A program made the position numbers and the translations under genes. 15,640 nt of DNA from a virus, in the UHGV virus genome UHGV-0333408, one strand, 5' to 3'. The notes under the pieces were generated by a model that worked only from the letters and a program-made list of their open reading frames with translations, had not been told where the DNA came from and searched no databases. Below are positions 121 through 1,468 of this stretch, piece by piece; within the stretch, counting starts at the first letter, position 1, and each line of letters starts with the position of its first letter.

Positions 121-419
121 AATGCGCTGAACTGTGCAGGATGCGAGCTGATTTTTGAAGACAAGATAAGCGGCACAAAGTCCGAAAGGCCGGGACTGAA
201 AAAACTGCTCAGGACATTATCGGCAGGTGACACTCTGGTTGTCTGGAAGCTGCTCGCGCACAGGGACGAATTGGTGGACGTCGTCCCAAACTTACACCAG
301 AACAATGGGCGCAGGCCGGGCGATTAATTGCATCAGGCGTTCCTCGCCAGAAGGTGGCGATCATCTATGATGTTGGTATATCGACACTGTATAAGAAGTT
401 TCCGGTCGGAGATAAATGA
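121..419 (+). pseudogene. Remnant of a Pin/Hin/Gin-family DNA invertase (serine recombinase): N-terminally truncated, with an internal out-of-frame deletion
   Basis: Frame A (121-252) reads NALNCAGCELIFEDKISGTKSERPGLKKLLRTLSAGDTLVVWKL, matching the N-terminal domain of Pin-type invertases from about residue 21. Frame B (about 253-419) reads ARAQGRIGGRRPKLTPEQWAQAGRLIASGVPRQKVAIIYDVGISTLYKKFPVGDK, matching the C-terminal HTH. A stop at 112-114 lies immediately upstream in frame, so the catalytic-serine N-terminus is missing, and about 55 codons between the two blocks are absent with a frame change. Confidence 0.8.
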
Positions 420-439
420 AACCGTAGCACGTCGTATGC
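402..439. repeat. Imperfect direct repeat, copy 1 (CCGGTC..GAAACCGTAGCACGTCGTATGC)
   Basis: Found by eye. Copy 2 at 1436-1468 shares CCGGTC, GAAA(A)CCGTAG, (A)CAC and GTATGC in the same order, about 26 of 33 positions. The two copies bracket the GIY-YIG gene. Confidence 0.5.
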
Positions 440-479
440 AAGAAGATCGTGCTGCGGTTTATGCTTATCACTTAAAGAC

Positions 480-1253
480 TCAAAAATTAGGTGAGTAACG
501 GACCGGGGACATAGCTCCTTTTTTTCTTAATTCATCTGGTATTTTTTTTCCAAGATAAAGATTTGCTATTTCAGGTGAGGCTTCTCGACCTTCAAAACCA
601 TAGCGAGAACTTTGTGTTGCCTCAAAGTCCGGATCCTCGTCCCAGTATTTCATCGTAGGGAAATTTTCACGTGTTGATTTGAGCCATTTATCAGCAATGA
701 AAACCCCTCGAACGATCCCCCTTACAGTAGCAAGAATGACTTCTGCTTGGCTGGCGCGAGAGACATTAATGCGCCAGCTAAATCGAACCGCATCATAAAG
801 CTCTGAATCCTTTGCACTTCTGTTAACGGAAATCATTAATGCTTTATGATGAAATATTATGGTTTCGGGTTGATATGTTGCTATCAACTCTTTGACATGC
901 GCGGCGCCGAATTCATTGCTGCCAGCACCATTCATGATATTCGTTAACCCAGGGTAGGCATCAATAAGTGCTGCTTCAACTTCGTACGCCGTCTTTTCAT
1001 CAGTCATTCCGTGTCGATGGATGACATGGATAACCTCAAGTCCTGCTAACCTTATTTCTCTAATTTGCTTTAGCTTGTTGCTCAGTAACTCGTCATCATC
1101 AGTCGCTGCCACTTCACCGCGCATATGGGCAAATACGCGGTTACCTTTGCCTTTCCCTACATAGAAGGTGCTTCCGTCCCTCGGATCAATCAATCGGTAT
1201 ACATACCAGCCAAGGTGTTCAATTACTCCAGAAGGAAACTCAGTAATATCCAT
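480..1253 (-). CDS. GIY-YIG superfamily nuclease-like protein (257 aa), orphan
   Basis: Uninterrupted 257-codon ORF. The N-terminus [28 protein letters not shown] fits the GIY-(spacer)-YVG..R..H pattern of GIY-YIG nucleases such as I-TevI. The C-terminal 150 aa has no motif I recognise. Weak Shine-Dalgarno. Confidence 0.65.
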
Positions 1254-1435
1254 TTTGCAATATCTATGAAGAATTATTTGTGAGACGTATATTAATGATC
1301 ATTGCAAGGGCTCACAACCAGTAGTGTTGAGAAAACCATCGGAGAAATGAGGCTAAGCCTTTGAATTTACATAGTACAAAAAAGATACTTTTCCTCATAA
1401 TGTGAGCTAATTTTATGTTTCGTTTGATGATTGGA

Positions 1436-1468
1436 CCGGTCTCGAAAACCGTAGACACATAGTATGCG
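1436..1468. repeat. Imperfect direct repeat, copy 2
   Basis: See copy 1 at 402-439. Confidence 0.5.

Follow-up and report, generated by a model that had tools for sequence, protein, structure and literature searches.

The window analyzed here is a 15,640-nucleotide stretch of viral DNA (UHGV virus genome UHGV-0333408). At the right end of a prophage within it, a broken pin invertase gene is followed by a gene for a GIY-YIG nuclease, identified below as PD-T4-3/CMoRE, by a Dcm/EcoRII pair, and by a fragment of the ssrA attachment site (Table 1). The CMoRE unit sits in the accessory region, with the tail-fibre and pin genes on one side and the attachment site on the other.

Table 1. Features at the right end of the prophage, in window coordinates
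Feature	Position	Strand	Basis
IS3-family insertion sequence, right end, truncating pin	1..120		Alignment with the final 120 nt of IS3 in strain E4
Dead pin (pinE-type) DNA invertase gene	120..419	+	Aligned to intact pinE of strain 40EC; pinE annotation in homologous loci
Left repeat copy, conserved hairpin between convergent pin and CMoRE	419..460		Folding, profile, covariation
PD-T4-3/CMoRE, predicted 5hmC/5ghmC-dependent type IV restriction endonuclease	480..1253	-	PADLOC and PDB matches; function from PMC12923530
CMoRE upstream (promoter) region, co-moving with the gene as one module	1254..1440	-	Conserved with the gene where downstream neighbours differ
Right repeat copy, diverged 5' part of the lambdoid block element	1441..1467	+	Profile match, E 0.015; homology breakpoints
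Dcm-type C5 cytosine methyltransferase (M.EcoRII-like)	1660..3093	+	Pfam, PADLOC
EcoRII-type type II restriction endonuclease	3128..4336	-	Pfam, PADLOC
Copy of the ssrA (tmRNA) 3' end, 37 nt, one mismatch	4571..4607	-	Compared with intact ssrA of strain ETEC1716

Genetic neighbourhood of the nuclease gene

A preliminary description made from the window alone had placed the nuclease gene between a dead invertase gene and an EcoRII-like pair, and both neighbours are borne out. Relative to the intact pinE of strain 40EC, the first 56 nt of pin are gone through IS3, nucleotides 57 to 179 of the gene lie at 120 to 242, and 199 bp are missing internally between two copies of CTGGAAGCTG; pin ends with a stop codon at 417 to 419. 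On the other side, the Dcm-type gene, whose start codon is taken from an annotated homologue, matches Pfam DNA_methylase (E 4.7e-78) and DNA_meth_N as well as PADLOC MTase_II (E 4e-230), and the EcoRII-type gene matches Pfam EcoRII-N (E 4e-61) and EcoRII-C (E 2e-71) and PADLOC REase_II (E 2e-234).

No intact tmRNA gene was found in the window. The short ssrA copy is, by its sequence, an attachment-site scar between this prophage end and a second prophage, the integrase of which lies at 5477 to 6652 (Pfam). A 274-aa open reading frame in the window received no assignment from Pfam or PADLOC.

The upstream region of CMoRE is conserved along with the gene, and its homology stops at about 1451 to 1467 in genomes with other downstream neighbours. 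As simple scans of positions 1 to 1800 for a consensus sigma-70 promoter and a canonical terminator returned nothing relevant, we infer the expression signals of CMoRE; native promoters have been used with success in published work on this enzyme (PMC12923530).

Identity of the GIY-YIG gene

The minus strand at 480 to 1253 carries one intact 257-aa open reading frame, and an ORF scan gave no rival frame of at least 60 aa. The N-terminal GIY-YIG domain reported for it in the preliminary description is present as Pfam LEM-3_GIY-YIG (residues 28 to 110, E 2.2e-14), and RefSeq still labels the gene "LEM-3-like GIY-YIG domain-containing protein"; a search of NCBIfam with the protein gave zero matches. 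The assignment comes from PADLOC, where the PD-T4-3 profile (PDLC04031) is matched end to end, residues 1 to 256 of 257 against profile positions 1 to 255 of 256, with E 8.7e-140 and 462.6 bits. PD-T4-3 reportedly goes back to the screen of Vassallo et al. in 2022. The same protein has since been renamed CMoRE and solved structurally (Liu et al., Nat Commun 2026, PMC12923530; PDB 9U75, 9U8D, 9U7U, 9U7Z).

The window protein is identical to the E. coli O157:H7 enzyme (9U75) at 251 of 257 positions (97.7%, E 3.3e-170), matches the APEC O1 enzyme (9U7U) with E 1.5e-150, and does not differ from the strain E4 protein (100% identity). The six substitutions relative to 9U75 are T51A, E55D, I133T, Q168K, N196H, and S226P. 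One of them falls in the autoinhibitory loop, where E55 stands in place of D55, so that the acidic run of four residues between alpha2 and alpha3 reads D52-D53-D54-E55 in the window and DDDD in O157:H7. Every published functional residue that was checked (PMC12923530) is kept, including the GIYxY-YIG tyrosines Y17, Y19, and Y31 (translation GWY17VY19RL...TFY31VGKG), R80, the tetramer-interface residues V92 and L96, and Y127 of the 5hmC pocket.

On these matches the open reading frame is assigned as PD-T4-3/CMoRE, a single-protein type IV restriction system. The gene itself was known before and adds nothing new; structures of the enzyme have been solved and its mechanism is established. The suggestion of a restriction enzyme that senses modification and has no methyltransferase partner was right; that of a novel defense effector gives way to a published system, and the C-terminal half, previously called uncharacterised, corresponds to a crystallographically defined 5hmC-sensing domain (PMC12923530). 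As a type IV enzyme requires no methyltransferase, the label "orphan" is misleading.

Predicted activity and relation to known nucleases

E. coli CMoRE is a type IV restriction endonuclease that cleaves the 5hmC- or 5ghmC-containing DNA of T-even phages (PMC12923530), and activity against Tevenvirinae in a native host has been described (bioRxiv 10.1101/2024.12.20.629700). Its C-terminal domain binds a flipped-out 5-hydroxymethyl-cytosine or glucosyl-hmC, the tetramer senses two modified cytosines about 21 bp apart, and the N-terminal GIYxY-YIG nuclease cleaves between them (C N11/N9 G) to leave 2-nt 3' overhangs; the enzyme has no strict sequence specificity and is inactive on ordinary DNA, and normal and 5mC DNA are spared owing to the acidic loop (PMC12923530). 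The window allele is predicted from its near-identical homologues to show the same 5hmC/5ghmC-selective cleavage and to protect against T-even phages. It would then destroy the DNA of infecting T-even phages while the cell survives, with no methyltransferase needed. We take the two restriction systems at this locus to be complementary: CMoRE would tolerate the 5mC laid down by the adjoining Dcm/EcoRII system, and hmC phages that EcoRII is unable to cut would be covered by CMoRE.

Relative to the characterized PD-T4-3/CMoRE, which has equal length and architecture and is likewise a single-gene system in E. coli, the window protein shows allelic differences only. Enzymes of the PvuRts1I/AbaSI family, GmrSD, McrBC, and McrA of prophage e14 share with it the combination of a modification sensor with a nuclease and no methyltransferase. 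PvuRts1I-family enzymes likewise place their cut between two modified cytosines at a set spacing (about N11-13/N9-10), and McrA occupies an equivalent position in K-12 e14, directly after pinE. The nuclease folds of these type IV enzymes are, however, PD-(D/E)XK, HNH, or GTPase coupled and not GIY-YIG, their sensor domains are unrelated to that of CMoRE, and McrA and McrBC also act on 5mC, which CMoRE ignores.

The flanking repeats in the window and in other loci

The gene had also been described as bracketed by an imperfect direct repeat of about 33 bp. What stands of this is a homologous core at 419 to 439 and 1446 to 1467, AAACCGTAG-CACGTCGTATGC against AAACCGTAGACACATAGTATGC, with 19 of 22 columns identical; the CCGGTC match further out can be aligned only with a 5-nt gap, and its left member lies inside the pin coding sequence. 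Within the window the repeat is marginal. Its Smith-Waterman local alignment score of 15 is equalled in 4% of shuffled sequences and in 7.5% of pairs of real segments drawn at random (p about 0.04 to 0.08), and neither a repeat-finding scan of the window nor a first MAFFT alignment of the flanks recovered it. Taken by themselves, these figures speak for a chance similarity between two sequences of no common origin.

Comparison with other loci contradicts it. A repeat profile built from six seeds, namely homologous copies from other loci and the left copy of the window, finds the right copy with E 0.015. The left copy scores E 1.7e-13 as one of those seeds, and independent support for it comes from pairwise similarity to the copies of strains E4, 40EC, and E275a (z 11.5 to 18.1). 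In strains E275a and 2023CK, CMoRE is flanked by a much clearer repeat of about 40 nt (score 26, z 11.5), in which the right copy orthologous to that of the window strongly resembles the left one. Both window copies also coincide with the population breakpoints of the CMoRE segment given below. Comparison with these loci shows the repeat pair to be genuine, and we regard a coincidental match as very improbable.

The left copy folds well beyond expectation on the plus strand (dG -25.8 kcal/mol, z -5.2) and on the minus strand (-19.8 kcal/mol, z -3.6). On the minus strand the hairpin is followed by UUUCAUUUAUC, a U-tract read straight from the sequence, and it probably serves CMoRE as intrinsic terminator. 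Together with the upstream region and the gene, it would make up a self-contained unit of prophage cargo. The right copy, which sits where the CMoRE module meets the Dcm/EcoRII module, has a degenerate hairpin with stability not beyond that of shuffles (z -1.5), and the Dcm leader that follows it (1469 to 1617) is collinear with the tail of the element described next at a similarity that is not significant. No Rfam family was found at the hairpins.

A conserved hairpin-led element of lambdoid phages

The hairpin begins a conserved intergenic element of about 190 nt from the lambdoid b region, referred to here as the block. A genome search placed it in 5386 of 5426 E. coli genomes, at 15,137 places, and it also occurs in 192 phage records, including phage lambda (24162 to 24348); Qin carries it too. 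Compensatory double changes occur at four stem pairs among 10 distinct copies, a small sample of mutually related sequences, and 0 of 500 shuffles match this covariation. As the pin-mcrA junction of K-12 e14 is without the hairpin element, the element is not universal downstream of pin. The two repeats of the window are copies of this pre-existing, conserved intergenic hairpin of lambdoid phages and not a target-site duplication.

In lambda, a second, partial copy lies between tfa and ea47, so that ea47 is bracketed by hairpin copies at 22573 to 22619 and 24157 to 24220. Like CMoRE, ea47 and other lambdoid "morons" run leftward just past the tail-fibre assembly genes or pin, and ea47 has the same hairpin element on both sides and forms a self-contained transcription unit. 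The cargo protein itself is unrelated and has no known function, and the right copy of the window, unlike that of the lambda ea47 slot, has been partly overwritten by the Dcm/EcoRII module.

Attachment-site scars offer another origin for the repeats. Here the copies would be partial ssrA 3' ends with phage arms, left by serial site-specific integration of small elements that target ssrA. Strains 40EC and E4 have a third copy of the element after EcoRII, joined without a gap to 28 nt that match the ssrA 3' end perfectly; the window itself holds a genuine ssrA fragment and tandem prophages, and ATGATTGG stands ahead of the right copy as it does of the true ssrA end. The fusion in 40EC and E4 can, however, be explained by a junction at a shared GAACCCG microhomology, the cassettes have no accompanying integrase, similarity to ssrA upstream of the right copy is not significant (z about 0), and in lambda and Qin the element is internal to the phage, far from any ssrA site. 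Given the last two observations, degenerate ssrA attachment-site scars were rejected as a general explanation, and such an origin is improbable for the window, if a little less so than chance similarity.

Had the repeats arisen in that way, each defence cassette would once have been an independent integrative element, or one mobilisable in cis with integrase supplied in trans.

Empty, filled, and exchanged cargo alleles

About 808 of 5426 complete E. coli genomes (about 15%) carry the CMoRE module, and about two thirds of the sampled loci have no adjacent Dcm/EcoRII pair. The order pin, CMoRE, variable cargo, and attachment site is the same in prophages at ssrA and in those near paoD. The population breakpoints of the CMoRE segment lie at about 419 and about 1437 to 1467, in line with the earlier reading of the segment of about 1 kb as a cassette. 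They can be seen from both directions: in HS13-1, which has Dcm/EcoRII and no CMoRE, homology to the window begins at 1437, and in O157, which has CMoRE and no restriction-modification pair, it stops at about 1451. In its setting the window gene resembles the other occupants of this position, being oriented leftward between the tail-fibre assembly/pin genes and accessory genes proximal to the attachment site, with a copy of the element on each side.

Empty-site alleles with one repeat copy and no GIY-YIG gene, which the preliminary description had looked to in related genomes, do occur in related prophages, for example in strain MEI2B-1023, where pin is followed directly by one element copy. 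In the empty alleles found, pin is joined to the full block and other cargo. An artificial empty-site query made of the pin end, one copy, and the Dcm leader retrieved 0 records at 80% coverage or more, and the direct pin-Dcm junction was present in no genome. Among IMG/VR loci, 66 of 120 carry at least two direct copies, and the cargo between copies comprises CMoRE, a gene for a 220-aa methyltransferase-like protein, ea47, Dcm with EcoRII, and unknown genes; neither ea47 nor the other slot proteins could be assigned by Pfam or PADLOC.

A homing-endonuclease-like insertion was among the earlier suggestions. In that case a free-standing GIY-YIG homing endonuclease would have cut the empty allele and copied itself in, leaving the repeats as a scar, and the GIY-YIG fold, the absence of the gene from all but about 15% of E. 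coli genomes, and the existence of empty-site alleles are all compatible with it. CMoRE does share the catalytic fold and the 2-nt 3' overhangs with I-TevI, I-BmoI, and the Seg proteins. These homing enzymes, however, act as monomers, read sequence through DNA-binding modules at the C terminus, and take unmodified cognate alleles as target, whereas CMoRE is tetrameric, has a pocket for the modified base and an acidic loop for autoinhibition, and carries one more tyrosine in its motif (GIYxY). A Pfam search of the protein at E up to 1 returned the GIY-YIG domain only, with no NUMOD, IENR1, or HTH module of the homing type. As the C-terminal domain is a modified-base sensor and the enzyme is inactive on ordinary DNA and lacks strict sequence specificity, CMoRE would be unable to cut an unmodified empty allele. 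The repeat pair is moreover a conserved hairpin that also brackets unrelated, non-nuclease cargo such as ea47 and the methyltransferase-like gene. Insertion by homing is thus largely refuted already, and of the explanations considered for the repeats it is the one to which we give almost no credence. The slot showed no trace of homing driven by a nuclease, nor of transposition.

The population patterns point instead to exchange of cargo by homologous recombination. The hairpin pair would delimit a slot, filled by ea47 in lambda and by different genes elsewhere, and cargo would move in and out through recombination between conserved hairpin copies. Lambdoid mosaicism is documented to arise by relaxed homologous recombination at short, diverged homologies (PMC3945230). 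Taken together, we consider the nuclease gene to be most probably a PD-T4-3/CMoRE type IV enzyme carried as prophage cargo in a hairpin-flanked slot, the contents of which are swapped by homologous recombination, and put the probability of this reading at about 0.88. Only the slot architecture is new, and mildly so.

The practical gain is the correct annotation of a defence enzyme carried by this sizeable minority of complete E. coli genomes. A modest by-product is the placement of CMoRE in the ea47 slot of phage lambda, apparently delimited by a duplicated, structurally conserved hairpin. With its empty and alternatively filled alleles, the slot offers a simple way to search lambdoid prophages by sequence for cargo genes at their tail-fibre end.

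It could be speculated further that the block is a dedicated boundary element, at once a leftward terminator-insulator and a preferred substrate for recombination, which defines a universal, minable slot for cargo and defence genes. We regard this extension as doubtful, if possible. Were it true, ea47, the 220-aa SAM-methyltransferase-like protein, and proteins of 201, 517, and 1180 aa would be new anti-phage or other fitness genes.

A slot of that kind would be common to lambda (at the ea47 position), Stx phages, Qin/Rac-type prophages, and e14/Mu-tail prophages. The slot hairpins themselves provide a concrete substrate on which cassette exchange can be tested.

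Identity of the nuclease gene

The only open reading frame of at least 60 aa within 402-1468 encodes a protein of 257 aa on the minus strand, and it is almost certainly a known and structurally characterised type IV restriction gene, PD-T4-3 (CMoRE), ordinary as a discovery. The ORF scan and Pfam bear out the preliminary description of a frame with an N-terminal GIY-YIG domain, which is LEM-3-like and lies at residues 28-110 (E 2.2e-14); Pfam gives no domain match in the C-terminal half. The protein matches the PADLOC PD-T4-3 model over its full length (E 8.7e-140), has 6 substitutions in 257 residues relative to the crystallised protein of E. 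coli O157:H7 (PDB 9U75/9U8D; E 3e-170), also matches the APEC O1 protein (9U7U/9U7Z), and shares 100% identity with the annotated protein of strain E4. Residues Y17, Y19, Y31, R80, V92, L96, and Y127 are all kept, and the acidic run reads D52-D53-D54-E55. The module is present in ~808 of 5,426 complete E. coli genomes (coverage of at least 80%). Of the functions first proposed, a modification-sensing restriction enzyme proved correct on the strength of the PADLOC match and the near-identity to CMoRE structures, and a novel effector is set aside, the gene being known and its structure solved. As the protein is CMoRE, its C-terminal half, previously called uncharacterised, is the known modified-cytosine sensor, and the lack of a methyltransferase partner of its own, correctly reported, is expected of a type IV enzyme.

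PD-T4-3 originated from a functional screen (ECOR68) and was renamed CMoRE and characterised by Liu et al. (Nat Commun 2026, PMC12923530). In E. coli it gives ~10^5-fold protection against T2, T4, and T6 by direct defence and not abortive infection; it cuts DNA containing 5hmC or 5ghmC, spares C and 5mC DNA, requires two modified cytosines, and cleaves with the geometry C N11/N9 G to leave 2-nt 3' overhangs (PMC12923530). The enzyme is a tetramer with an N-terminal GIYxY-YIG nuclease domain, which differs from UvrC in a 15-residue inserted loop bearing four consecutive acidic residues that serves as an autoinhibitory lid on the active site, and its C-terminal domain binds 5hm-dCTP in an SRA-like mode (PMC12923530). 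An independent study of the native host NILS69 found PD-T4-3 among only two active systems, targeting Tevenvirinae (bioRxiv 10.1101/2024.12.20.629700). Because CMoRE ignores 5mC, coexistence with the neighbouring Dcm/EcoRII pair is possible, and the two systems are probably complementary, with EcoRII acting against unmodified invaders and CMoRE against hmC phages that escape EcoRII.

Features of the window relevant to the CMoRE locus
Feature	Position	Strand	Remark
IS3 right end	1-120		sequence comparison
Dead pin invertase, pin nt 57-179	120-242
pin reading-frame end	417-419		TGA
Hairpin	419-460
Left repeat copy, alignable core	419-439
CMoRE	480-1253	minus
Right repeat copy, profile match	1441-1467
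Right repeat copy, alignable core	1446-1467
Dcm-type C5-methyltransferase	1660 (start), 3093 (end)		start from annotated homologue
EcoRII-type endonuclease	3128-4336	minus
ssrA (tmRNA) 3' end copy	4571-4607		37 nt, one mismatch; beyond EcoRII
274-aa ORF	4615-5439	minus
Integrase of second prophage	5477-6652
isrK and C4 antisense RNA	12034-12222	plus	Rfam; 67.9 and 83.6 bits

Flanking repeats and the hairpin element

The direct repeat reported around the gene is genuine, but it is weaker than described and calls for a different explanation. Its core is identical in 19 of 22 columns; a gap of 5 nt is required to include the outer CCGGTC match, whose left occurrence falls within pin coding sequence. 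Taken by itself, the window gives the repeat a marginal score, which 4% of shuffles and 7.5% of randomly drawn real segment pairs also reach, and a repeat-finder scan missed the repeat. It is the comparative data that establish the repeat. A profile of the element, built from six copies, five from elsewhere plus the left copy of the window, recovers the right copy at E 0.015 (the left copy scores E 1.7e-13, as expected of a seed), and the left copy is independently supported by pairwise similarity to copies in E4, 40EC, and E275a (z 11.5-18.1). Strains E275a and 2023CK have, to the right of CMoRE, a copy far more like the left one, with ~40 nt and both hairpin arms (score 26, z 11.5), that runs on into a conserved block of ~190 nt. 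Population breakpoints fall at both copies: homology to the window begins at 1437 in HS13-1 (Dcm/EcoRII without CMoRE), stops at ~1451 in O157:H7 strains (CMoRE without the restriction-modification pair), and begins at ~418 in ETEC1716, which lacks pin. Chance similarity between the copies is rejected in view of the pairwise similarities, the profile match, and the alleles with one block copy right after the pinE stop (below).

The first part of this element is a hairpin (-25.8 kcal/mol, z -5.2). As UUUCAUUUAUC comes after it on the minus strand, it could plausibly serve as an intrinsic terminator of the leftward CMoRE transcript; a simple scan for terminators gave no call there. Comparison of 10 distinct copies shows pairing in 87.7% of stem cells and compensatory double changes in 4 of 13 stem pairs, matched by 0 of 500 shuffles, which points to a selected structure, albeit from a small sample. 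In the window's right copy only the left arm is well kept, and its own hairpin is degenerate (z -1.5). The block is found in 5,386 of 5,426 E. coli genomes, at a median of 3 places per genome, and is located at the right ends of lambdoid prophages such as Qin in K-12 and the sitABCD-carrying prophage at icd. Copies are likewise present in 192 phage records, among them that of lambda (24162-24348, between ea47 and ea31).

A polymorphic cargo slot

Empty sites exist in MEI2B-1023 and 2196, although not in the form first imagined, since pin joined directly to the Dcm leader was found in no genome. In these two strains, which carry the same prophage type without CMoRE, the pinE stop codon is followed immediately by a single complete block copy, and the cargo further on is an HNH protein plus an AAA ATPase, or a TrlF-like ATPase. 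The occupied allele is thus the empty one with ~1 kb inserted just after the hairpin and a hairpin on both sides.

At least two direct copies are present in 66 of 120 hairpin-bearing IMG/VR viral contigs. The slots between copies hold a 220-aa class-I SAM-methyltransferase-like protein (40 slots, spacing ~1050 nt), CMoRE (15 slots, ~1024 nt), Dcm plus EcoRII (6 slots), lambda ea47 (4 to 6 slots, 1584 nt), and, in single cases, proteins of 201, 517, and 1180 aa with no family assignment. The pair therefore characterises a polymorphic cargo slot in general, and is not, as had been suggested, the insertion scar of this nuclease. A homing endonuclease is rejected on the same ground, that non-nuclease cargo is flanked by the same repeats, and further because Pfam detects no homing-type DNA-binding domain in the window protein and CMoRE leaves unmodified DNA uncut (PMC12923530). 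The 220-aa protein, the commonest slot occupant in the viral contigs (L022, an IMG/VR locus, and about 40 others), matches Pfam Methyltransf_12 (E 4e-9).

We consider it likely, with a probability of about 0.7, that the repeats are copies of the conserved hairpin element bordering a slot whose cargo is exchanged by homologous recombination. CMoRE would then be moron-like cargo of a slot in the lambdoid b region, the borders would be element copies, and cargo would be swapped between prophages at short conserved sequences. Formation of lambdoid mosaics by such recombination has been shown experimentally (De Paepe et al. 2014, PMC3945230). That the repeats are instead att scars left by serial integration at ssrA, or that the cassettes are moved by an integrase provided in trans, might be proposed from 40EC and E4, where a third block copy adjoins a perfect 28-nt ssrA fragment; this is improbable, as the right-copy flank is not significantly ssrA-like and the element is internal to lambda and Qin, away from att sites.

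Phage lambda carries, besides the block, a partial second copy that lies between tfa (orf-194) and ea47, and ea47 is therefore bracketed by the same pair (22573-22619 and 24157-24220), for which no description was found in the literature searched. CMoRE occupies the place of ea47, as the leftward gene that comes first after tail-fibre assembly or pin. This hairpin-delimited "ea47 slot," common to lambda and many prophages, is the only point here that is mildly new, and could serve for mining cargo genes. An HNH endonuclease and AAA ATPase pair, by annotation looking like a two-gene defence system, lies right after the block in both lambda (ea31/ea59) and MEI2B-1023 (L014 3836-5933).

Prophage setting and neighbouring genes

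The neighbours were correctly identified as a dead invertase to the left and an EcoRII-like pair to the right. The pin gene (window 1-419) was inactivated twice, by an IS3 insertion that took its first 56 nt and by loss of 199 bp between two 10-bp direct repeats with the sequence CTGGAAGCTG, apparently a deletion by slippage. Strain E4 instead has its IS3 between an intact pin and CMoRE. Homologous loci show the CMoRE locus to be the right end of a prophage whose baseplate and tail-fibre genes are Mu-like and whose fibre segment is invertible, in the order tail fibre, pinE, CMoRE, variable cargo, attachment site; the cargo is Dcm/EcoRII or, elsewhere, a different restriction enzyme, AbiTii, an AraC regulator, and others.

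The prophage site varies by strain, being ssrA in some and beside paoD in others. In 40EC and E4, with the prophage beside paoD, EcoRII is followed by the 28-nt ssrA 3' fragment (L001 13647-13700; L002 ~14908-14960), fused to the third block copy at a GAACCCG microhomology, which implies that the CMoRE-EcoRII end moved by recombination from an ssrA-integrated prophage to another locus.

The window holds no intact tmRNA gene; past its ssrA fragment come the 274-aa cargo ORF, integrase, cI-like repressor, and other genes of a second prophage, and two ssrA prophages in tandem therefore meet within the window. Neither Pfam nor PADLOC gives a match for the 274-aa ORF, which lies between the att fragment and the integrase; its position is held in other genomes by DarT/NADAR, a STAS-like gene set, or an AAA ATPase, so that the ORF is a candidate defence or cargo gene, unrecognised so far, of a second hotspot. 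Further into the second prophage, isrK and C4 antisense RNA lie back to back within a 383-aa Ash/Rha ORF, a region that resembles the P1/P7-type c4-ant immunity region.
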